The translations under genes and the position numbers were made by a program. DNA of 64,000 nt from Mustelus asterias (taxonomy: Eukaryota), in contig NC_135804.1 in NCBI RefSeq assembly GCF_964213995.1, positions 94,736,001 through 94,800,000 on the forward strand, given 5' to 3'. Positions 1-55,183 of this stretch are shown here, one piece after another; the stretch's first letter is position 1; each line of letters starts with the position of its first letter. The notes under the pieces were generated by a model, which did not search any database, was not told where the DNA came from, and worked only from the letters and a program-made list of their open reading frames with translations.

Positions 1-870
1 TCATTGACGAGTACTCACGTTTCCCCTTCGCGATTCCCTGCCCAGATATGTCCTCGGCCACAGTCATCAGGGCCCTGCGCAGCCTCTTCACTCTGTTCAG
101 TTTCCCCAGCTATATCCATAGCGACCAGGGATCCTCCTTCATGAGTGATGACCTGCGACGGTACCTGCTCTCCAAAGGCATAGCCTCAAGTAGGACTACT
201 AGCTACAACCCCCGGGGAAACGGACAGGTGGAGAGAGAGAACGCAACAGTCTGGAAGACCGTTTTACTAGCGCTACGGTCTAAAGGCCTTCCAGTCACCC
301 ACTTGCAAGAGGTCCTACCGGAGGCACTACACTCCATTAGGTCCCTCCTGTGCACGGCAACCAATGCCACCCCCCACGAACGGATGTTCGTGTTCTCCAG
401 GAAGTCTTCCTCAGGGACTTCACTACCGTCGTGGCTGGCATACCCGGGCCCTGTCCTGCTTCAGAAGCATGCCAGGACCCATAAGTCTGACCCCCTGGTC
501 GAAAGGGTTCAACTCCTCCATGCCAACCCCCAGTACGCCTATGTGGCGTACTCCGATGGACGGAGGACACGGTATCTATCCGTGACCTCGCACCTGCAGG
601 TGACTCAGGCACCACTATGGCCCCCAACCCCTCACCCCCAATCCCCAACCGTGTCGCTACCACATCAGAACCACTATTCACTCCTCTCACCCCCGTATAC
701 AACTCGCCTGAGCCCCAGGAGTTGTCACCACGCACTCGACGATCGGACGAGACTACGATGACAACAACGTCCTGGCGCTTGAAACGACACCGCGACCTGA
801 ACCTACATCGGAACCGGCACTACGGCGGTCGCAGCGGCAGAGCGAGCCTCCAGATAGGCTGAACCTGTAA
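1..870 (+). mobile_element. Ty3/Gypsy LTR retrotransposon, integrase C-terminal part (runs off the window start; frameshifted 3' end)
   Basis: ORF 48-761 has retroviral integrase core motifs IHSDQGSSF and TTSYNPRGNGQVERENAT, followed by HSIRSLLCTATNATPHERMF; a purine-rich tract and an LTR follow. Confidence 0.92.
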
Positions 871-4040: not shown

Positions 4041-4099
4041 CCTAAACGTTTAATGCATTCACAGACTTTCCTCTGTCCGTTATTCCAACAATGGTCATT

Positions 4100-4950
4100 T
4101 GATTTGATTTATTATTGTCACATGTAAAAGTTAAAGTTTATTTATTAGTCACAATTAGGCTTATATTAACATTTTTGTAATGAAGTTACTGTGAAAATCC
4201 CCTAGTCGCCACACTCCGGCACCTGTTTAGGTACACTAGCATGGCCAGTGCACCTAACCAGCATGTCTTTCGGACTGTGAGAGGAAACCGGAGCACACAG
4301 AAGAAACCCATGCAGACACAGGGAGAACGTGCGATCTCCGCACAGACAGTGACCCAAACCAGGAATCGAACCCGGGTCCCTGGTCCCGTGAGGCATCAGT
4401 GCTAACCACTGTGCCACCGTGCTGCCCTAGTATTAGTATACAGTGTAAAGTATTGTTTCTTGTGCAGTATTTAGACAAAGCATACCATTCATAGAGAAGG
4501 AAAGGAGAGAGAGTGCAGAATGTAGGATGACAGTCATATCTAGGGTGTAGAGAAAGATCAACTTAATGCGAAAGTCTGATGGCAGCAGGGAAGAAGCTAT
4601 TTTTGCATCGGTAGGGAAGTGTCCTCAGATTGTTGTATCTTTTTCTCGACGGAAGAAGGTGGAAGTGAGTGTGTCCGGGGTGTGTGAGATCCTTAATTAT
4701 GCTGGCAGCTTTTCCGAGACAGCGGAAAGTGTAGACAGTGTCAATGGGTGGGAGGATAGTTTGAGTAATGGACTGGGTGTCGTTTATGACCCTTTGAAAT
4801 TTCTTGCGGTCTTGGATAGAGTATGAGTCATACCAAGCAGCGATACAACCAAAAAGAATGCTTTCTGGTGTATCTATAAAAGTTGGTGAGTGTCGTATTG
4901 GACATACCAAATTTCTTTAGTCTTCTGAGAAAGTAGTGGCATTGGTTGTC
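4100..4950 (-). mobile_element. Rex1/Babar-type LINE 3' fragment interrupted by a SINE
   Basis: ORF 4563-4910 ends HPGHTHFHLLPSRKRY...KNSFFPAAIRL; the TGTGACAATAATAAATCAAATCAAA tail is also seen at 61655-61882. Confidence 0.7.
4125..4428 (-). mobile_element. tRNA-derived HE1/V-SINE-type SINE (GACTAATAAATAAAC tail type)
   Basis: Minus strand reads GGGCAGCACGGTGGCACAGTGGTTAGCACT (A box), GGTTCGATTCC (B box), then a body related to TGCGTGGGTTTCCTCCGGGTGCTCCGGTTTC. Confidence 0.88.
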
Positions 4951-12113: not shown

Positions 12114-12347
12114 GCCGGTGGCGGAGGAGGATGTTGAATGTGGTGGATGGGGTCCAGTTAAGTGGGCTGCTTTGTCCTGGATGTTGTCACACTTCTTGAG
12201 TGTTGTTGGAGCTGCGCTCACCCAGGCAAGTGAAGACTATTCCATTGCGCACCTGACTTGTGCATTGTAGATGGTAAACAGGCTTTGGAGGAGTCAGGAG
12301 GTGAGTTGCACTCCACAGAATTCTCAGCCTCTGGCCTGCTGTTGTAG

Positions 12348-13125
12348 TCATGATGTGGAGATGCCGGCGTTGGACTGGGGTAAACACAGTAAGAAGTTTA
12401 ACAACACCAGGTTAAAGTCCAACAGGTTTATTTGGTAGCAAAAGCCACACAAGCTTTCGGAGCTCTAAGCCCCTTCTTCAGGTGAGTGGGAATTCTGTTC
12501 ACAAACAGAGCATATAAAGACACAGACTCAATTTACATGAATAATGGTTGGAATGCGAATACTTACAACTAATCAAGTCTTTAAGAAACAAAACAATGTG
12601 AGTGGAGAGAGCATCAAGACAGGCTAAAAAGATGTGTATTGTCTCCAGACAAGACAGCCAGTGAAACTCTTCAGGTCCACGCAACTGTGGGGGTTACAAA
12701 TAGTGTGACATGAACCCAATATCCCGGTTGAGGCCGTCCTCGTGTGTGCGGAACTCACAAGTTCCACACACACGAGGACGGCCTCAACCGGGATATTGGG
12801 TTCATGTCACACTATTTGTAACCCCCACAGTTGCGTGGACCTGAAGAGTTTCACTGGCTGTCTTGTCTGGAGACAATACACATCTTTTTAGCCTGTCTTG
12901 ATGCTCTCTCCACTCACATTGTTTTGTTTCTTAAAGACTTGATTAGTTGTAAGTATTCGCATTCCAACCATTATTCATGTAAATTGAGTCTGTGTCTTTA
13001 TATGCTCTGTTTGTGAACAGAATTCCCACTCACCTGAAGAAGGGGCTTAGAGCTCCGAAAGCTTGTGTGGCTTTTGCTACCAAATAAACCTGTTGGACTT
13101 TAACCTGGTGTTGTTAAACTTCTTA
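12348..13125 (-). mobile_element. Palindromic Penelope-like insertion (arms ~366 bp, centre ~12757)
   Basis: Identical peptides on opposite strands (12499-12684 - and 12831-13016 +); TSD CTGCTGTTGTAG. Confidence 0.92.
13031..13067 (+). ncRNA. Minimal type I hammerhead ribozyme (PLE-associated); mirror copy at 12448-12484 on -
   Basis: CAC-CTGAAGA-A-GGGGC(TTAGA)GCTCC-GAAAGCTT-GTG: conserved core boxes, stem II, palindromic AGCT in place of stem III, CAC/GTG stem I. Confidence 0.75.
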
Positions 13126-13140
13126 CTGCTGTTGTAGCCA

Positions 13141-13310
13141 CAGTAAGAAGTTTAACAACACCAGGTTAAAGTCCAACAGGTTTATTTGGTAGCAAAAGCT
13201 ACCAAATGTGTGGCTTTTGCTACCAAATAAACCTGTTGGACTTTAACCTGGTGTTGTTAAACTTCTTACTGTGTTTACCCCAGTCCAACGCCGGCATTTC
13301 CACATCATGA
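13141..13310 (+). mobile_element. Mini fold-back Penelope-like insertion
   Basis: Inverted arm plus sense arm with tail; TSD CTGCTGTTGTAGCCA at 13126-13140 and 13311-13325. Confidence 0.9.
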
Positions 13311-14338
13311 CTGCTGTTGTAGCCAAAGTATTTACATGGCTGGTGTTTAAAACAACTCAAACACTAAGCCTTCCTAAATACAAAATATAACTGCCTCATT
13401 AACACTTTGTTTTAGTGAGAAGTAAAAGTGAAGGCCCAAAGTGCAGGACACCACTGAGGTTAAATTAAAAGAGAAAATTCATCACATCAAGAATTATCAA
13501 TTGAGCTGTGTCAAGCATGTGTTTAAATGCTTGGGGTTTATAGAAGCAAAGAAAGAAGTGCAGAGGTCTGTGCTTTGAGGTCCTGCATTAGTTATAGATT
13601 GCATGATAATCGATGAGTACCATGGAGTTGGACTGACTGAGGTGCAACCAGCAACAATCACCACCCCACTTCCCTGACAGTAAACAAAATGGTTTGTTGG
13701 CAGACTCTGAAAATTAATCAAAAGAGTCATATTTGTTTGTGGTACATTGGTTAGTGCACTTCAGATCCTTGAAAGAATTGGCCTCTGTACATTGATTGCA
13801 ATGAAGACTGGTTTCATTTTTATTGAAGTTTTTTCTCTAATCGCCACATTCTGTTTAAAGGAGATGAGCAGTGGATTCTCAGAATTAAACATTGAAGGAC
13901 TTGATTAATTATTCGATCTTATCTTCTTGTAAGGTGCTCAAGTCTTAGAGGCTGTGAGGCTTCGCTGAGCGGTGAATAGTTGAAACAAAGATAAATGTTA
14001 TGCGCAAAATGTAGATGGGAATAAATGGCAAAATTGTTTGACTGCCTTGTTGGGTTTTTGCTCAGAAATGTTTTGAAAATCATTTGTAAAATAATGTGTT
14101 TGCTTCATTATAAATATTGAAACTATTAAGAACAATGATGATTTGAAGAGCTCTGAGTAACATTAACTGATAGAAACAACATACTTTGGATCATTGGGAA
14201 AGAATATAAAATCTTCCAAATTTGCATATTTCCAATCTGTGAACATAAATACAATCACAAAGGTCTGCTGTGAGATTTCACTTTGAAACTGTAGGTAAAA
14301 ATCAGAGGTCTTTGAAAATTCCTGACAAGTATGATCTT

Positions 14339-32039: not shown

Positions 32040-34890
32040 AGGAGGCGGTGCTACTGGATTAGTAATCCAGAGGTCAAGGTGAATACTCTGGGAACTAGTG
32101 GAATTTGAAATTAATGAATAAAAACCTGGAATTAAAAGCTAGTCTCAGTAATGGTGACCAGAAAACCATTGTTGTAAAAACCCATCTGGTTCACTAGTGC
32201 CCTTTAGGGACGAAAATCAGTTGTCCATCTCTGCTTTGGGCTACAAGTGCCTTCAGAGCCACAGCAATGTGGCTGACTCTTAAATGGCCTAGCATGCTAC
32301 TCAGTTGTAATAAACTGTTACAAAGACTATAAGGAATAGAACATAGAACAGTACAGCACAGAACAGGCCCTTCGGCCCACGATGTTGTGCCGAACTTTAT
32401 CTGAAACCAAGATCAAGCTATCCCACTCCCTATCATCCTGGTGTGCTCCATGTGCCTATCCAATAACCGCTTAAATGTTCCTAAAGTGTCTGACTCCACT
32501 ATCACTGCAGGCAGTCCATTCCACACCCCAACCACTCTCTGCGTAAAGAACCTACCTCTGATATCCTTCCTATATCTCCCACCATGAACCCTATAGTTAT
32601 GCCCCCTTGTAATAGCTCCATCCACCCGAGGAAATAGTCTTTGAACGTTCACTCTATCTATCCCCTTCATCATTTTATAAACCTCTATTAAGTCTCCCCT
32701 CAGCCTCCTCCGCTCCAGAGAGAACAGCCCCAGGTCCCTCAACCTTTCCTCATAAGACCTACCCTCCAAACCAGGCAGCATCCTGGTAAATCTCCTCTGC
32801 ACCCTTTCCAGCGCTTCCACATCCTTCCTATAGTGAGGCGACCAGAACTGCACACAATATTCCAAATGTGGTCTCACCAAGGTCCTGTACAGTTGCAGCA
32901 TAACCCCATGGCTCTTAAACTCCAATCCCCTGTTAATAAACGCTAACACACTATAGGTCTTCTTCACAGCTCTATCCACTTGAGTGGCAACCTTTAGAGA
33001 TGTGGATATGGACCCCAAGATCTCTCTGTTCCTCCACAGTCTTCAGAACCCTACCTTTGACCCTGTAATCCACATTTAAATTAGTCCTACCAAAATGAAT
33101 CACCTCACATTTATCAGGGTTAAACTCCATTTGCCATTTTTCAGCCCAGCTTTGCATCCTATCTATGTCTCTTTGTAGCCTACAACAGCCCTCCACCTCA
33201 TCCACTACTCCACCAATCTTGGTGTCATCAGCAAATTTACTGATCCACCCTTCAGCCCCCTCCTCTAAGTCATGAATAAAAATCACAAAGAGCAGAGGAC
33301 CAAGCACTGATCCCTGTGGCACTCCGCTAGCAACCTGCCTCCAGTCCGAAAATTTTCCATCCACCACCACCCTCTGTCTTCGATCAGACAGCCAGTTACC
33401 TATCCAATCGGGCAACTTTCCCTCTATCCCACACCTCCTTACTTTCATCATAAGCCTACCATGGGGGACCTTATAAAACGCCTTACTAAAATCCATGTAT
33501 ATGACATCAACTGCCCTACCTTCATCAACACACTTAGTTACCTCCTCAAAAAATTCTATCAAATTTGTGAGGCACGACTTGCCCTTCACGAATCCGTGCT
33601 GACTATCCCGGATTAATCCGCATCTTTCTAAATGGTCGTAAATCCCATCCCTAAGGACCTTTTCCATCAATTTACCAACCACCGAAGTAAGACTAACTGG
33701 TCTATAATTACCAGGGTCATTTCTATTCCCTTTCTTAAACAGAGGAACAACATTCGCCACTCTCCAGTCCTCTGGCACCATCCCCGTGGACAGTGAGGAC
33801 CCAAAGATCAAAGCCAAAGGCTCTGCAATCTCATCCCTTGCCTCCCAAAGAATGAATGAAACAAGAATGAAACAAAGCAGATTGCCTGGCATTAACTCAG
33901 GCACCAACAATGACAAACCCAGTCCTTTGAACCTTGCAAAGTCCTCCTTACTAACATTTGGGGGCTTGTGCAAAAATTGGGAGAGGTGTCCCACAGATTG
34001 ATCAAACAGCACTATGGCATAGTCATACTCAGGGAACCGTACCTTACAGATAATGCCCCAGACTCCACCGTCACCATCCCTGAGTATGTCCTGTCCCACT
34101 GGCGGGGCAGACCCACAAGAGATGGTGGTGACATAGTGGTATCGAATTAGGAGGGAGTTGACCTGGAAAAACTCAACATTGACTCCAGATGCCTTGAGGT
34201 CTCATAATATCAGGTCAAACATGGGCAAGGAAACCTCATGATGATTATCACCTACCATGGCCCCCTCAGCTCATGACTCAATACTCCTCCATGTTGAAGA
34301 CCAACTGGAAGAAGCACTACACTAAGGGTGGCAAAGGGACAGAATATACTGAGTGGGGGGATCTCAATTTCCAGTGCCATGAGTGGCTCGGTAGTACCTC
34401 TACTGATTAGGCTGGCCAAGCCCTGAAGAACATAACTGTTAGATTAGCAGGTGGTGAGGGAATCAATAAGAGGGATAATCTACTTGACCTCATACTCACC
34501 AGTTTATCTGTCACCGATGCAACTGCCCATGGCAGTATTGGCAGGAGTGACCACTGCACAGTCCTTGTGGAGACAAAGTCCCACCTTCACATCGAGGATA
34601 CCCTCCATTGTGTTGTGTGGCCCAACCACAGAGCGAGATGGGATAGATTTCAAACAGATCTGCAGCTCAACACTCAGCCATCAGCAGCAGCAGTATTGTG
34701 TCCAACCACAATCTGTAACCTCATGATCCAGCATAACCCCACTCTACCATTACTGTCAAGCTAGTGGATCAATTCTGGAACAGTGGAGGACAGCAAGCCA
34801 GGAGCAACACCAGGCATACCTAAAAATATTTGTCAACCTGGTGAAGCTACAACAGTGGAAGCAGCAAGCAGTAAACAGAGGCAAGCAAGA
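32040..34890 (+). mobile_element. LINE family B 5' portion: tRNA-like head, short UTR, APE endonuclease region (split by a CR1)
   Basis: ORF 33968-34150 LIKQHYGIVILREPYLTDNAPDSTVTIPEYVLSHWRGRPTRDGG is an APE N-terminus; GRSDH motif near 34540; head matches the SINE at 5528-5823. Confidence 0.75.
32337..33851 (-). mobile_element. Young CR1 (RT and 3' end, one frameshift)
   Basis: PGNYRPVSLTS, QHGFVKGKSCLTNL, SGVPQGSVLGP, FADDTK; (TGTTCTA)n tail. Confidence 0.95.
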
Positions 34891-45126: not shown

Positions 45127-45432
45127 GCTTATCCAAATAGAAATACTACGTGAATGGACCTCGACAGTGAGTTTCAGTAGGCTATTTGACTGTGGATGGA
45201 GGACCCCTGCTAAGTGAGATCCAGCCTTCTGATGTTCACACAAACCCACATTTATCATGGATCACTGGTTAGAAATTAGGAGGAGGAAACCTAGCATTTT
45301 TACTTCGCTTCCCTTCCTAGTTCAGAGAAACTGAGGTGGATTGCAATGTACTTAATGTTGCACCAGGTGCGATCACTAAACTCAACACAAACTGTTAGCC
45401 AATCTGGTGCTTCCTGATCGATAGTAATTACA

Positions 45433-45515
45433 GTAAGAAGTTTAACAACACCAGGTTAAAGTCCAACAGGTTTATTTGGTAGCAAAAGCCACACATCTAT
45501 AGTATCTCCACATCT
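45433..45515. mobile_element. Abortive Penelope-like insertion (short inverted arm plus tail stub)
   Basis: TSD ATAGTAATTACA at 45421-45432 and 45516-45527. Confidence 0.85.
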
Positions 45516-47342
45516 ATAGTAATTACACAGTCTTAACCATCTGAGGGAGCACTTGGAGAATGTTCTCAGCTTATTGAATGAAATATCTTGCCAATGTGTT
45601 ACCATGTTCATCATTTTTGGTTTCATTTATTTAACTGTTCCTGTTTGCTCGTTCACCTTCCCATTGCTATTCATGGAATATACTGAGGAGTTATATCAGG
45701 ATTTTCTATTTTTAGTAAAAGGAACTGGCCTTTACTCCAGGAATAACTAATACTACCTCACACCATCAGTGTGGTAAAATATGCTGAGGCACTTAACAAC
45801 GAGCAGGATCAAACATCACACACCATGGAATTGGGAAAAGGGTTGGCGTGTGAATAATGGAAGAGATAAATTGATGAGGCTTTTGAAGAGAGGAAAAGAT
45901 GTTGAAAAGTGGATCGAATGAAGAATAAATGTCCAGTTCTCGGTCGAGGGCCACAATAGATGAAAAACTCCGAACTGGAGAGAACTAAACTCCGAACGGA
46001 AATAGCAGCCCAGAATCAGAAGAATGGAGGCTGTAGTTCCAATGGTATAGGGCGCAATGCCCAATCTGTTTGTAAATAATGGTGAAGATTTTGAAATCTT
46101 TATGTTAGAAGATGGCAAGCCAGTGGGGGTGATGGTTATTGCAGGAGTTCATAGACTATGAGATTGATAGTTATGTCTGTTATGACTGTTGATGTATGCA
46201 GGTTGCCTCTGTTATATTCCAGCAAGCCAAATGGTGAAGGATAGAACTAGAGCCAATCTTAACGCGCTTTTATAAGCATTTATTTACAGGTAAACATTAC
46301 AAACACAGACCTGCTAACCTGCTCACCACCTGCATCTAATTAAACACACATAATATACAATGAACAGACTCCTTGGGTGAAAATGAATCTGGGTCAATGA
46401 AAAACAGGACACAAGTGCAATGAGATTGAGAATGAGAATGAAACAGGACACAAGTGCAATGCCTGAGAGACAAAATCAATCTGCAAACCTTTACAGATCA
46501 ATAGATAATTTTTAACTGGGAAAGCATCAGCTCATCTTCCACTCACCAAGCTCTCTCTGGTCTACATAACATGTTTGTCCCTCCTAAGTAGCTGCCACAT
46601 CCTAGTCCCAAGTTTCACAATCGGGTTAGTACCTGTTCCCCAACCAGACATCAAACACTCCTTGTGTCGTTTATTCTACTGATTTTTTTGCAACAATAAA
46701 AAAATGCTTGGCAGCTCATCAGCATTTGAAATAGAAAGGAAAGTTTTATATTTTGGGTGAACCCAAATTGTCAGGGAGTGGATGAGCCACAACTTTCTTC
46801 AATTTCAGACTGGTGTGATCAAAGCTCAAAGAAACCTGTTTTGTTACAGGCTGAAACTCTGCTCCTGATTCCATTCATATCAACATTTGTCCACTTAAGC
46901 TGAATCTGACAGAAATTTAATCTTGGTGTTTGAAGCCCATACCCTACCCATTATCAAAAGCCTTGCTTGTCTCTGCCCATATATCATCCCATCTGACACT
47001 TAAACCTTCACCTATACTTTAATCTTCCTCAGATTTGACTACTGCAATTTTGTCAGGTTTCATAATTCCACTACATACAAACTTCAATAAAAGCCAAATA
47101 CTGTGGATGCTGAAATAAAAGCAGAATCCTGCCCACCCATCATTTGACTTATTTAAAATGTCTTTGTTGCCCACCCCCCCTCCACTCCCCAACCCCCCCA
47201 CCCCCCTATATCCTCCAGTTCTTTGGCACATCTTTCCATTTTCTTCAAGAAGAACTACCTGGGGCATGGTTGATTGTAATCAATACTGGTTGTTAATTTA
47301 TTTTTCGAGGTAACATCGATCCTTCCTGCTGAAAATAAATTA

Positions 47343-48502
47343 GGTAAGAAGTCTCACAATACCAGGTTAAAGTCCAACAGGTTTATTTGGTCGCAAATAC
47401 CAAAAGCTTTCGGAGCACTGCTCCTTCGTCAGATGGAGTGGAAATTTGCTCTCAAACAGTGCAAACAGACACAAAATCAAGTTGCAGAATACTGATTAGA
47501 ATGCGAATCCCTACAACCAGCCAGGTCTTAAAGATACAGACAATGTGGGTGGAGGGAGCATTAAACACAGGTTAAAGAGATGTGTATTGTCTCCAGACAG
47601 AACAGCTAGTGAGATTCTGCAAGCCCAGGAGGCAAGCTGGTGGGGTTACTGATAATGTGACATAAATCCAACATCCCGGTTTAGGCCGTCCTCATGTGTG
47701 CGGAACTTGGCTATCAGTTTCTGCTCAGTGACTCTGAGCTGTCGTGTGTCGTGAAGGCCACCTTGGAGAACGCTTACCTGAAGATCCAAGGCTGAATGCC
47801 CGTGACTGCTGAAGTGCTCCCCCACAGGAAGAGAACAGTCTTGCCTGGTGATTGTCGAGCGGTATTCGTTCATCTGTTGTCGTAGCGTCTGCATGGTTTC
47901 CCCAATGTACCATGCAGACGCTACGACAACGGATGAACGAACACCGCTCGACAATCACCAGGCAAGACTGTTCTCTTCCTGTGGGGGAGCACTTCAGCAG
48001 TCGCAGGCATTCAGCCTTGGATCTTCAGATAAGCGTTCTCCAAGGTGGCCTTCACGACACACGACAGCGCAGAGTCACTGAGCAGAAACTGATAGCCAAG
48101 TTCCGCACACATGAGGACGGCCTAAACCGGGATGTTGGATTTATGTCACATTATCAGTAACCCCCACAGCTTGCCTCCTGGGCTTGCAGAATCTCACTAG
48201 CTGTTCTGTCTGGAGACAATACACATCTCTTTAACCTGTGTTTAATGCTCCCTCCACCCACATTGTCTGTATCTTTAAGACCTGGCTGGTTGTAGGGATT
48301 CGCATTCTAATCAGTATTCTACAACTTGATTTTGTGTCTGTTTGCACTGTTTGAGAGCACATTTCCACTCCATCTGACGAAGGAGCAGTGCTCCGAAAGC
48401 TTATGGTATTTGCTACCAAATAAACCTGTTGGACTTTAACCTGGTGTTGTGAGACTTCTTACTGTGTTCACCCCAGTCCAACGCCGGCATCTCCACATCA
48501 TC
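47343..48502 (+). mobile_element. Palindromic Penelope-like insertion (arms ~550 bp, centre ~47903) with GIY-YIG C-terminus
   Basis: YIGETMQTLRQRMNEHR...PVGEHFS...EQKLIAKFRTHEDGLNRD on both strands; TSD GAAAATAAATTA at 47331-47342 and 48503-48514. Confidence 0.95.
48370..48406 (+). ncRNA. Minimal type I hammerhead ribozyme (also at 54417-54453 +, 55047-55083 +, 53449-53485 -, ~47400-47436 -)
   Basis: CCAT-CTGACGA-A-GGAGC(AGT)GCTCC-GAAAGCTT-ATGG; stem I covaries with the CAC/GTG version. Confidence 0.78.
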
Positions 48503-48859: not shown

Positions 48860-51800
48860 CATGACATGAGATTGCTCTCTAAGGAGTTCTTTCTTAAACT
48901 TATTTTTCTCCCAACCTGGAGTGGACGTGCCACGTTTCCTGAGGTTAACCTTCAAGGACTTTTTGAACCTTAATCTTAGCCTACCTCACAGGCAGTATTC
49001 AAATTTAAATTGTGAATACATGACTACCTTAGGGATTTTATTGTCAGACATATGTACTGCATGTCCACTCCATCTTAGTGGGCGGTATGGTGGCACAGTG
49101 ATTAGCACTGCTGCCTCACAGTGCCAACGACCAGTTTCAATTCTGGCCTTGGGGGACTAAGTATGTGGAGAGAACAAAGAACAATACAGCACAGGAACAG
49201 GCCCTTCGGCCCTCCAAGCCCGTGCCGCTCCCTGGTCCAAACTAGACCATTCTTTTGTATCCCTCCATTCCCACTCCGTTCATATGGCTGTCTAGATAAG
49301 TCTTAAACGTTCCCAGTGTGTCCGCCTCTACCACCTTGCCTGGCAGCGCATTCCAGGCCCCCACCACCCTCTGTGTAAAATATGTCCTTCTGATATCTGT
49401 GTTAAACCTCCCCCCCCTTCACCTTGAACCTATGACCCCTTGTGAACGTCACCACCGACCTGGGGAAAAGCTTCCCACCGTTCACCCTATCTATGCCTTT
49501 CATAATTTTATACACCTCTATTAAGTCTCCCCTCATCCTCCGTCTTTCCAGGGAGAACAACCCCAGTTTACCCAATCTCTCCTCATAACTAAGCCCCTCC
49601 ATACCAGGCAACATCCTGGTAAACCTCCTCTGTACTCTCTCCAAAGCCTCCACATCCTTCTGGTAGTGTGGCGACCAGAACTGGACGCAGTATTCCAAAT
49701 GCGGCCGAACCAACGTTCTGTACATCTGCAACATCAGACCCCAACTTTTATACTCTATGCCCCGTCCTATAAAGGCAAGCATGCCATATGCCTTCTTCAC
49801 CACCTTCTCTACCTGTGACGTCACCTTCAAGGATCTGTGGACTTGCACACCCAGGTCCCTCTGCGTATCTACACCCTTTATGGTTCTGCCATTTATCGTA
49901 TAGCTCCTCCCTACATTATTTCTACCAAAATGCATCACTTCGCATTTATCAGGATTGAACTCCATCTGCCATTTCTTTGCCCAAATTTCTAGCCTATCTA
50001 TATCCTTCTGTAGCTTCTGACAATGCTCCTCACTATCTGAAAGTCCTGCCAATTTTGTGTCGTCCGCAAACTTACTGATCACCCCAGTTACACCTTCTTC
50101 CAGATCGTTTATATAAATCACAAACAGCAGAGGTCCCAATACAGAGCCCTGCGGAACACCACTAGTCACAGGCCTCCAGCCGGAAAAAGACCCTTCCACT
50201 ACCACCCTCTGTCTTCTGTGACCAAGCCAGTTCTCCACCCATCTAGCCACCTCCCCCTTTATCCCATGAGATCCAACCTTTTTCACCAGCCTACCATGAG
50301 AGACTTTGTCAAATGCTTTACTAAAGTCCAGATAGACGACATCCACGGCCCTTCCCTCGTCAACCATTCTGGTCACTTCTTCAAAAAACTCCACCAGGTT
50401 AGTGAGGCATGACCTCCCACTCACAAAACCATGCTGACTATCGTTAATGAGTTTATTCCTTTCTAAATGCGCATACATCCTATCTCTAAGAATCTTCTCC
50501 AACAACTTCCCCACCACGGACGTCAAGCTCACTGGCCGATAATTACCCGGGTTATCCTTCCTACCCGTCTTAAATAACGGGACCACATTAGCTATCCTCC
50601 AATCCTCTGGGACCTCACCTGCGTCTAGTGACAAGACAAAGATTTGCGTCAGAGGCCCAGCGATTTCATCTCTCGTCTCCCTGAGCAGCCTTGGATAGAT
50701 TCCATCAGGCCCTGGGGATTTGTCAGTCTTTATATTCTCTAACAAACCTAACACTTCCTCCCTTGTAATGGAGATTTTCTCCAACGGTTCAACGCTCCCC
50801 TCCGAGACACTCCCAGTCAACACATCCCTCTCCTTTGTGAATACTGACGCAAAGTATTCATTTAGGATCTCCCCTACTTCTTTGGGCTCCAAGCATAATT
50901 CCCCACTTTTGTCCCTGAGAGGTCTGATTTTTTCCCTGACAACCCTTTTGTTCCTAACGTATGAATAAAATGCCTTGGGATTCTCCTTAATCCTGTCTGC
51001 CAAGGACATTTCGTGACCCCTTTTTGCCCTTCTAATTCCCCATTTGAGTTCTTTCCTACTTTCTTTGTACTCCTCCAGAGCTCCCTCCGTTTTTAGCTGC
51101 CTGGACCTAACATACGCCTCTCTTTTCTTTTTGACCAGTCCCTCAATTTCCCTGGTTATCCACGGTTCTCTAATCCTACCCTTCCTATCCTTTTTTACAG
51201 GCACATGCCTGTCCTGTAGCCCTAACAACTGTTCCTTAAAAGACTCCCACATGCCAGATGTGGATTTACCCTCAAACAGCCTCTCCCAATCAAGAGCTGC
51301 CAATTTCTGCCTAATCCCACTAAAGTTAGCCTTCCCCCAATCCAACACCTTACCCTTGGGACACCACTCATCCTTTTCCATCACTATCCTAAAGCTAACA
51401 GAATTGTGGTCACTATTTGCCACATGTTCCCCTACCGAAACTTTGAAGACCTGACCGGGCTCATTCCCCAGTACTAGGTCCAGTATAGCCCCCTCTCTAG
51501 TCGGGCTATCTACATATTGTTCCAAAGAACCCTCCTGTACGCATTTTACAAATTCCTCCCCATTCAGAGTCCCAGCTCTCAGCGATTTCCAGTCTACACC
51601 AGGGAAATTGAAGTCTCCCACTACAACAACCCTATTTTTCCTGCACCTATTCAGTATCTCCTGACATATGGAGTTTGCACGTTCTCCCGTGTTTGCTCGC
51701 GTTTCCTCCTGATGCTCCAGTTTCCTCCCACATTCAATTTGATTTGATTTGATACTCCAAAGATGTGTTGATGTGTTGTAGGTTGATTGGCCATGCTAAA

Positions 51801-52930: not shown

Positions 52931-53392
52931 AATTCCAATAAATACGCTGAAAAGTGTCAAGAAACAGAATATTCTTGGATGGAGTGAGTGAGGTTGTTAA
53001 ATTCCAATGGAAAATAAATCTCATGATCTCAGAATTCACAACTTCCTCAAAGTTGTGCTTTATGGACTATAATAATGGTGATAGCAGGTTAAATGTGTAA
53101 GTTATGTGAAGTCTGTGACCCACCCACTAGCAACGGTGGCACAGTCATTACCTAAGCCCTATATAAGGCAGGTCCAAGACTGGGCCTGCTGAACTGTCGT
53201 CCCAGCCAGGGACTAGTTGTGTATACCACGGCAGTAGTTTTACTTTGCATTCTGTAATGAACTATGTTCCTTTCCAGTCGGACTTTCTGAGTTATTACAA
53301 TGGAGCTAGACATTCTAGCCTCAGGCCTGCTTCCATCTCTTGCACTGCCTCCCCAAAGCAAAAATGCTGTATGCAGTGGTCCTTTATATAGA

Positions 53393-55183
53393 GTAAGAAG
53401 TCTCACAACACCAGGTTAAAGTCCAACAGGTTTATTTGGTAGCAAATACCATAAGCTTTCGGAGCAATGCTCCTTCGTCAGATGGAGTGGTCTCTGTTCT
53501 CAAACAGGGCACAGACACAGAAATCAAATTACAGAATACTGATTAGAATGCAAATCTCTACAGCCAGCCAGGTCTTAAATGCACAGACAATGTGGGTGGA
53601 GGGAGCATTCAACACAGGTTAAAGAGATGTGTATTGTCTCCAGACAGTACAGCTTGTGAAATTGTGCAAGTCCAGGAGTCAAGCTGTGGGGGTTACTGAT
53701 AATGTGACATAAATCCAACATCCCGGTTTAGACCGTCCTCATGTGTGCGAAACTTGGCTATCAGTTTCTGCTCAGTGACTCTGCGCTGTCGTGTGTCGTG
53801 AAGGCCGCCTTGGAGAACGCTTACCTGAAGATCCAAGGCTGAATGCCCGTGACTGCTGAAGTGCTCCCCCACAGGAAGAGAACAGTCTTGCCTGGTGATT
53901 GTCGAGCGGTATTCGTTCATCCGTTGTCGTAGCGTCTGCATGGTTTCCCCAATGTACCATGCAGACGCTACGACAACGGATGAACGAACACCGCTTGACA
54001 ATCACCAGGCAAGACTGTTCTCTTCCTGTGGGGGAGCACTTCAGCAGTCGCAGGCATTCAGCCTTGGATCTTCAGATAAGCGTTCTCCAAGGTGGCCTTC
54101 ATGACACACGACAGCGCAGAGTCGCTGAGCAGAAACTGATAGCCAAGTTCCGCACACATGAGGACGGCCTAAACCGGGATGTTGGATTTATGTCACATTA
54201 TCAGTAACCCCCACAGCTTGCCTCCTGGGCTTGCAGAATCTCACTAGCTGTTCTGTCTGGAGACAATACACATCTCTTTAACCTGTGTTTAATGCTCCCT
54301 CCACCCACATTGTCTGTATCTTTAAGACCTGGCTGGTTGTAGGGATTCGCATTCTAATCAGTATTCTACAACTTGATTTTGTGTCTGTTTGCACTGTTTG
54401 AGAGCACATTTCCACTCCATCTGACGAAGGAGCAGTGCTCCGAAAGCTTATGGTATTTGCTACCAAATAAACCTGTTGGACTTTAACCTGGTGTTGTGAG
54501 ACTTCTTACTGTGTTCACCCCAGTCCAACGCCGGCATCTCCACATCATCGAAAATAAATTAACCAGCTTGATCTGACACTTCCTGTCATTATTTGTGGAA
54601 TTGCAGTGGTTCAGAATGAACACCGCTCGACAATCACCAGGCAAGACTGTTCTCTTCCTGTGGGGGAGCACTTCAGCAGTCACGGGCATTCAGCCTTGGA
54701 TCTTCAGGTAAGCGTTCTCCAAGGCGGCCTTCACGACACACGACAGCGCAGAGTCACTGAGCAGAAACTGATAGCCAAGTTTCGCACACATGAGGACGGT
54801 CTAAACCGGGATGTTGGATTTATGTCACATTATCAGTAACCCCCACAGCTTGACTCCTGGACTTGCACAATTTCACAAGCTGTACTGTCTGGAGACAATA
54901 CACATCTCTTTAACCTGTGTTGAATGCTCCCTCCACCCACATTGTCTGTGCATTTAAGACCTGGCTGGCTGTAGAGATTTGCATTCTAATCAGTATTCTG
55001 TAATTTGATTTCTGTGTCTGTGCCCTGTTTGAGAACAGAGACCACTCCATCTGACGAAGGAGCATTGCTCCGAAAGCTTATGGTATTTGCTACCAAATAA
55101 ACCTGTTGGACTTTAACCTGGTGTTGTGAGACTTCTTACTGTGCTTACCCCAGTCCAACGCCGGCATCTCCACTTCATGACTA
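53393..55183 (+). mobile_element. Composite palindromic Penelope-like insertion with captured genomic segment (~53909-54614)
   Basis: TSD CCTTTATATAGA at 53381-53392 and 55184-55195; outer arms match each other, and the middle matches 47862-48567. Confidence 0.92.

Follow-up and report, generated by a model that had tools for sequence, protein, structure and literature searches.

Junctions of a Penelope-like element in Mustelus asterias accumulate at the predicted cut of its hammerhead ribozyme

Palindromic copies of a Penelope-like element (PLE) in the genome of Mustelus asterias begin far more often than expected at a single base, the one that follows the predicted cleavage site of the hammerhead ribozyme carried by the element itself. 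We consider it probable, at about three chances in four, that arm ends pile up at this base because reverse transcriptase (RT), on RNA already cleaved by the ribozyme, reached the new 5' end and ran off it. We observed the positions of the junctions, the target duplications around them, the linkage of RT to a GIY-YIG endonuclease, and the anatomy and covariation of the hammerhead, both in a 64-kb window (the whole stretch of DNA that was analysed, on contig NC_135804.1) and across the 3.68-Gb host genome. The window holds about 20 arms of the PLE repeat, and the +1 to +26 stretch of the repeat has 49,966 exact matches genome-wide. Coordinates are counted from the predicted hammerhead cut, with +1 at window position 13065 in an intact copy and at 13208 in a small copy.

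The repeat is an endonuclease-bearing (EN+) PLE of the Neptune/Nematis type. The ORF upstream of its pseudo-LTR is known from pieces, namely the start (locus L319) and end portions. An RT domain is found in a frame linked to a young arm (L007; RVT_1, E = 1.4e-6, 28.6 bits, slightly below the 29.6 cut-off), which carries a YIDD motif, while at the C-terminus of the same ORF lies a GIY-YIG domain (L008 and L009; E about 2e-4, 21.9 and 22.3 bits, slightly below the 22.6 cut-off). Between the end of the GIY-YIG frame and the cut lie 244 bases, and this frame end also occurs in the window. The linker between RT and endonuclease reads C-X4-C-XX-C in the translations of L007 and L008; a CX2-5CXXC linker at this place is a feature of the Neptune/Nematis clades in the excerpts of PMC8557442. 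At L219 (1-1800), a LINE RT fragment is inserted frame-like within the PLE RT frame. A search against solved structures returned no significant match.

The insertions themselves have the shape expected of the class. Their outer ends, in 270 parsed copies, cluster at +60 to +66 and at +99 to +105, and inverted, 5'-truncated arms with a tail of 30-40 bases on one end only occur in the family; a pair of internal starts is the PLE 'tail' signature in excerpts of PMC11167929 and PMC8557442. Target duplications are mostly 12-16 bp long (loci L076-L345), and in many cases a few of these bases are shared with the arm ends, which suggests short RNA-target pairing at both starts. Head-to-tail tandem units with a whole hammerhead, by which a retrozyme would be recognized, were not found among the copies, which are head to head; one short direct duplication of the -36 to +36 unit occurs (L277).

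An intact minimal type I hammerhead occupies 13031-13067 (plus strand) of the window. It consists of stem I (13031-13033 with 13065-13067), the core CTGAAGA (13034-13040), an extra A, stem II (13042-13056) and GAAA (13057-13060); stem III is the palindromic AGCT, H17 lies at 13064, and the cut is predicted between 13064 and 13065. The first-pass annotation had read the subfamily across this bond as GAAAGCTT^GTGTGGCTTTTGC (13057-13077), and the sequence bears this out. In the family, the hammerhead has an extra base after A9 and a stem II of 5-6 bp. The AGCT stem III is present in 124 of 130 intact motifs, in which H17 is T in 93, A in 26, C in 10 and G in 1 (the core CUGANGA...GAAA...UH being the search condition, and overlapping loci being counted twice). 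In 32 hand-picked rows of 78 variants, 98.4% of the cells in stems I and II pair, compared with 28-54% in slid controls; compensatory change on both sides is seen in four of eight pairs, and the pair flanking the cut (1.1-2.1) is C-G in 23 variants, U-A in 8 and unpaired in 1. Because the pair next to the cut switches between C-G and U-A, the register of the ribozyme is fixed. The young subfamily contains eight or more variants of the stem II loop side by side, among which a G-U wobble shifts position, implying many masters active concurrently under structural selection.

This ribozyme is expected to be a weak one. No Rfam hammerhead model reached its gathering level in the window, and none matched at E up to 10 within 12300-13400; the remaining Rfam matches were hairpin-driven microRNA hits below their cut-offs. 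The two-base loop III presumably falls outside the Rfam hammerhead models. The fold predicted to be most stable is not that of the active dimer (-31.0 kcal/mol, against -18.1 for the dimer), and this, together with the Rfam mismatch, suggests that activity would be low or protein-assisted. A minimal hammerhead of this dimer type is described in the excerpts of PMC4209133, with low activity reported for the type.

The intact hammerhead lies in an arm of insertion A (12346-13128), a larger head-to-head palindrome of the same subfamily with its centre at 12756-12759, which reads through the ribozyme and contains the end of the PLE ORF, with its final codons and stop (12819-12821). It adjoins the small copy, insertion B (13140-13312), a single insertion made up of an inverted tail-less arm, an 8-base filler and a tail-bearing arm, and flanked by a 16-bp target duplication (13125-13140 on the left and 13310-13325 on the right, plus strand). 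The inverted arm of B (+6 to +65; 13140-13199, minus strand) has its outer end at the family's second reverse-transcription start, used at +60 to +66 in 210 of the 270 copies. The tail-bearing arm (13208-13312, plus strand) covers the pseudo-LTR from +1 to about +105; it reaches the start codon of the ORF (ATG at +100, 13307-13309), where it ends, and overlaps the target duplication. Its first base is the one after the predicted cut, within one base, since the match reaches the T at 13207; the start at 13208 thus stands as first annotated. So does the short re-copied piece described in front of this arm: 13198-13207 (plus strand), which consists of a GC shared with the inverted-arm end, plus the 8-base filler, is a sense re-copy of +12 to +21. 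This junction recurs independently at L219, where the flanks differ. One target sequence in three copies (12336-12347, 13126-13139 and 13311-13324) frames insertions A and B, which are oppositely oriented; apparently one staggered cut site served on two occasions, or a single event gave both.

A second mini-insertion had been cited alongside the first, on the grounds that its inverted arm (given as 45433-45494) stops at the same base. This arm (45430-45494, minus strand) does stop at the complement of +1, and is followed by filler and an 11-base tail remnant (45504-45514) within a target duplication (45421-45432 and 45516-45527). The match reaches 45495. The junction has CAC(A) in common with the tail end, so that 3-4 bases of microhomology could explain the junction and the case, taken alone, is ambiguous. 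Of the two cases first offered in support, that at 13208 holds while that at 45430 does not stand by itself; that the class is a minority of about 3%, and that a further peak exists at -37, had gone unnoticed. Elsewhere in the window, older-subfamily palindromes lie at 47344-48501 and 53392-55182, in which two stretches some 6 kb apart, 48097-48501 and 54144-54548, align identically, as a local duplication would have them do. Other frames include an integrase core fragment (3-758, plus strand), an RT fragment (32975-34201, minus strand) and a LINE frame with endonuclease and RT (49405-51795, minus strand).

The histogram of truncation points for which the first-pass annotation had called was run on copies elsewhere in the genome, and shows a sharp peak at +1, right after GAAAGCTH. 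Copies were counted by exact patterns, and palindromic ones were binned by the gap between their arms (2,383, 1,735, 1,787 and 2,041 copies in four 31-base bins). The first 100, 100 and 70 listed from the first three bins were parsed (270 copies, 225 of them of the main subfamily); these samples are the first listed matches, come nearly all from one contig (C1) and are limited to palindromic copies whose anchors match exactly. In 31 of the 225 main-subfamily copies (32 of all 270) the first base of the tail-bearing arm is +1, against 3.6 expected: a null simulation with uniform starts and the observed offsets and inserts (5,000 runs) had this mean and a maximum of 12 at +1, and a maximum of 17 at any position. 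Weighted, the count at +1 is about 670 (671), some 13 times the mean of 52 per base over -25 to -2, where the maximum is 173; positions +2 to +14 are also raised (weighted mean 96 versus 52). The inverted arm has a far weaker peak, with 14 of 270 ends at +1 and a spread over +1 to +7, and seven of its ends were called at -76, far outside the peak.

Could the peak arise at the level of DNA or of joining, from a fold-back or deletion point of long palindromes or from amplification of one copy? Microhomology hot spots do exist in this family at 6-base palindromes, AAGCTT at -6 (weighted about 170) and GAATTC at -45 (13 of 100 listed, by eye), CAC(A) is present in the 45430 case, and about 36 of 100 listed matches belong to a single type of junction. 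Yet of the 31 junctions at +1, 20 contain insertions and 4 are blunt, while the other 7 have one base in common and none has more, so microhomology does not explain the peak, at which 20 of the 73 insertion-type junctions between -25 and +14 are found. Copies at +1/-1 have differing flanks in 45 of 45 cases, with a target duplication of at least 8 bp in 42 of 45, and a DNA rearrangement would be unable to put poly(A) before +1, an arrangement described below. This explanation is largely refuted and, in our judgement, very improbable.

An RNA end made by a host or element nuclease, or a stall of RT at the folded three-way junction, would place ends near this site with no ribozyme chemistry. The hammerhead is minimal and predicted to be weak, as the low activity of its type in the excerpts of PMC4209133 would have it, and the cut bond is exposed and unpaired in any event. 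Against this, the peak at the canonical bond is sharp to the base; nothing of similar size marks a stall at stem I or at the 3' edge of stem II (0 of 225 at -9, 2 of 225 at -10); and joints of poly(A) to +1 require a free end, not a pause. We regard such an origin as distinctly unlikely, and run-off from ribozyme-cut RNA as the better account.

How common are arms that end at the cut? A genome-wide count, filtered for four non-consensus bases upstream of the anchor, gave 849 matches at +1/-1 versus 156 for the same design at -4/-5, and about 35-40 of 100 listed matches of the -4/-5 control are, by eye, themselves GTGTGGCTT-type re-copies. Because 20 of 37 parsed junctions pass the filter, the 849 matches correspond to about 1,570 arms, or about 3% of the 49,966 young arms. 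The +1 class is a minority, with an estimated 97% or so of copies reading through the site. Unselected samples, in which none of the first 30 copies ends at +1 and flank arms end at +1 in 0 and at -1 in 1 of 101, are underpowered for a class of about 3%, and palindromic copies were therefore counted.

Where the first base of a subfamily differs, the peak still keeps to the ribozyme register, though it is weaker. Those starting with ATGG, counted with the same design, have 465 matches at +1 versus 201 at -4 (2.3-fold); the filter removes their commonest junction (7 of 50 loci, by eye), which itself has 2-3 bases of microhomology, and about 7 of 100 listed ATGG matches are intact copies with one extra base. 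These subfamilies bear on the idea that +1 is a splice boundary, the template being an excised or debranched intron. In the main subfamily +1/+2 is GT, as in a splice donor, and PLE introns near the pseudo-LTR are known from the excerpts of PMC4209133 and PMC8557442. The ATGG subfamilies, however, have no GT and are still enriched, and no constant upstream exon is joined to +1. Against the consensus, TT followed by GTGTGG makes a poor splice donor, and we find a splice boundary barely credible.

A second genome-wide peak of arm starts, as strong as that at +1, lies 37 bases upstream of it. In the fourth bin, about 14 of 100 listed arms start at -37, 11 at -38 and few at -40 to -44 (by eye), and the same-design count, made with a shorter anchor and for this position only, is 913. 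The A at -37 (13028) belongs to CCACTC and lies 29-30 bases after a TATA-like box (12997-13004, plus strand) that is found in the commonest variants; by the promoter consensus, these look like an initiator and a promoter box. On this sequence evidence -37 is likely a capped transcription start. A G precedes -37 in 47 of 100 listed arms, compared with 4 of 100 listed at +1 of the ATGG subfamilies, in which the first base is likewise A (by eye), and these counts fit a cap at -37 and none at +1 in those subfamilies. In the main subfamily a G stands before +1 in 15 of 31 junctions, and in one of the four poly(A) joints considered below; we attribute it to repetition of the first G or to pairing with +7, but it is there inseparable from a cap.

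If starts make such peaks, as at -37, then +1 might be a second capped start that coincides with the ribozyme site, with cDNAs running off the cap. The G before +1 in the main subfamily and in one poly(A) joint would agree with this, as would the T/G at -1/+1, a pyrimidine-purine step being typical of transcription starts. On the other side, the TATA-like box, the initiator and the G-rich peak are all at -37, and no TATA lies 30 bases before +1; the low frequency of G in the ATGG subfamilies means that the main-subfamily G can be a first-base repeat or a snap-back onto +7; and the match with the covarying 1.1-2.1 pair would be due to chance. A second start is unlikely, and we retain cleavage by the hammerhead as the source of the +1 end.

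Joints with poly(A) also point to a free RNA end at +1. AATAAA is found at 13083-13088 (+19 to +24, plus strand), and the likely poly(A) site is at +37 to +39 (13101-13103). In four DNA contigs of the public run X13, an 8-9 base A-run that follows +37/+39, 13-15 bases past AATAAA, is joined to exactly 13065; three of these recur in X14, from the same sample. The evidence from public runs consists of contigs only, with no run recorded as RNA. The same two runs also contain joints from 13100/13101 back to 13082 via 1-3 bases. In a contig from another organism (X4 record 25), one arm ends at 13065 and the other at 13028. Joints of poly(A) to -37 were absent among the matches listed, and poly(A)-to-+1 junctions were absent from 345 loci whose selection filters exclude that class.

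At +1 junctions, the last cDNA base pairs with position +7 on the other arm (in about 36 of 100 listed), extra bases are present or nearby RNA is re-copied, and a hairpin junction of GCAAAA to GTGTGG is recurrent. In L324, what is joined to +1 is the ORF from +128 on, so that the template contained the ORF start. Jumps from the RNA 5' end to +36, or to the ORF beyond the tail, are seen at L277 (minus strand, near 1650), L319 (near 4061-4290), L123 and L324; the ORF jump points beyond the tail are +122, about +178 and about +190, and these templates thus included the ORF start. The earlier proposal that such copies are cDNAs of hammerhead-cut RNA is therefore supported, with the probability given at the outset, by a genome-wide peak that is largely free of microhomology and follows the ribozyme register, and by poly(A) joints in four contigs.

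In vivo cleavage, the cap and the order of steps are what we infer in the following scheme. The endonuclease would nick both target strands 12-16 bp apart, and RT would start on sense RNA at two internal sites (about +62 and about +100, judging by the outer ends) and head for the RNA 5' end. Where the template is the 3' product of self-cleavage, the cDNA would stop at +1, often gain 1-2 untemplated bases or re-copy nearby RNA, and be joined head to head with the other arm via a foothold of 0-1 base; on uncut RNA, cDNAs would stop at -37, where the likely capped start lies. Some 90% of arms go past both points. Since the likely poly(A) site precedes both RT starts, a unit mRNA would have these starts only near its 5' end, and such arms would then need a transcript that reads through, a circle formed by ligation, or a jump to the -37 to +37 repeat at the RNA 3' end; a cut-and-ligated circle is proposed in the excerpts of PMC4209133.

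[quoted passage not shown] Tentatively, and with more doubt than confidence, we suggest that the PLE may follow a target-primed form of such replication. Its mRNA would be capped at -37 and would end with poly(A) near +37 of the pseudo-LTR that follows, and each insertion would begin with strong-stop cDNAs, which would have to jump to the 3' repeat, or go round a ribozyme-cut and ligated circle, to copy the ORF; the thousands of mini-palindromes at -37 and +1 would be failed jumps, and the poly(A)-to-+1 joints end-to-end jumps. The poly(A) joints and the L277 duplication are the remnants expected of failed or end-to-end jumps, but they are few. The short cDNA resembles the retroviral one, and a repeat (-37 to +37) is predicted at both RNA ends here; in contrast to retroviruses, priming would take place at nicked target DNA and at two sites, and a few joints point to transfer to the 3' repeat. 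If true, the scheme would account at once for the tail, for the pseudo-LTR and for what the hammerhead does.

The element class, the hammerhead, the inverted structure and an analogous record for R2 with its HDV ribozyme are already known; the base-precise junction evidence for a PLE is new. The EN+ PLEs in the excerpts of PMC4209133 and PMC8557442 are alike in RT with C-terminal GIY-YIG, the CX4CXXC linker, an inverted 5'-truncated arm and a tail on one arm, and they have the same minimal type I hammerhead in the pseudo-LTR, with an extra base after A9 and a palindromic stem III. In these excerpts, in vivo evidence for PLE hammerheads is described as absent (PMC4209133) and ribozyme function as unclear (PMC8557442), and neither contains a junction histogram, whereas a pile-up at the cut is seen here. 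In the open-access main-text literature, we found no report of PLE insertions that end at the hammerhead cut, nor of strong-stop transfer in PLEs.

Comparable features are found in other systems. The Poseidon PLE of the green anole, PAc, likewise has two internal RT starts that define the tail and uses both target strands, according to excerpts of PMC11167929, and the parallel makes a protein-assisted weak hammerhead plausible here too. Its ORF starts inside the hammerhead, whereas the ATG here is at +100; and its cleavage is, in those excerpts, dispensable in vitro, with no RNA reads ending at the site, in contrast to the roughly 3% of genomic arms that end at the cut in the present family. 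For R2, excerpts of PMC3774820 describe junctions at a ribozyme-made end that are similar in kind to those at +1; there the ribozyme has an HDV fold, all full-length copies are delimited by its cut and reverse transcription begins from the 3' end, while here a hammerhead cut 60-100 bases from the RT starts gives a minority of abortive mini-palindromes. Non-LTR retrozymes, in excerpts of bioRxiv 10.64898/2026.07.22.740005 and PMC7229834, are non-coding, hammerhead-related, PLE-derived repeats, as here. Retrozymes are head-to-tail tandems with whole ribozymes, whereas the present copies are head-to-head palindromes without the 5' half of the ribozyme.

A base-precise genomic record of this kind provides indirect in vivo evidence of self-cleavage in PLEs, a role called open or undetected in the excerpts of PMC4209133, PMC8557442 and PMC11167929, and it indicates that the cut RNA stays bound and serves as template. 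The ends lie on the sense strand, which argues against the antisense self-priming model as set out in the excerpts of PMC3846280. Junction histograms need nothing but DNA to map the likely positions of cap and poly(A) site and are applicable to any genome rich in PLEs, and they make the circle, read-through and strand-transfer models of PLE replication directly testable.
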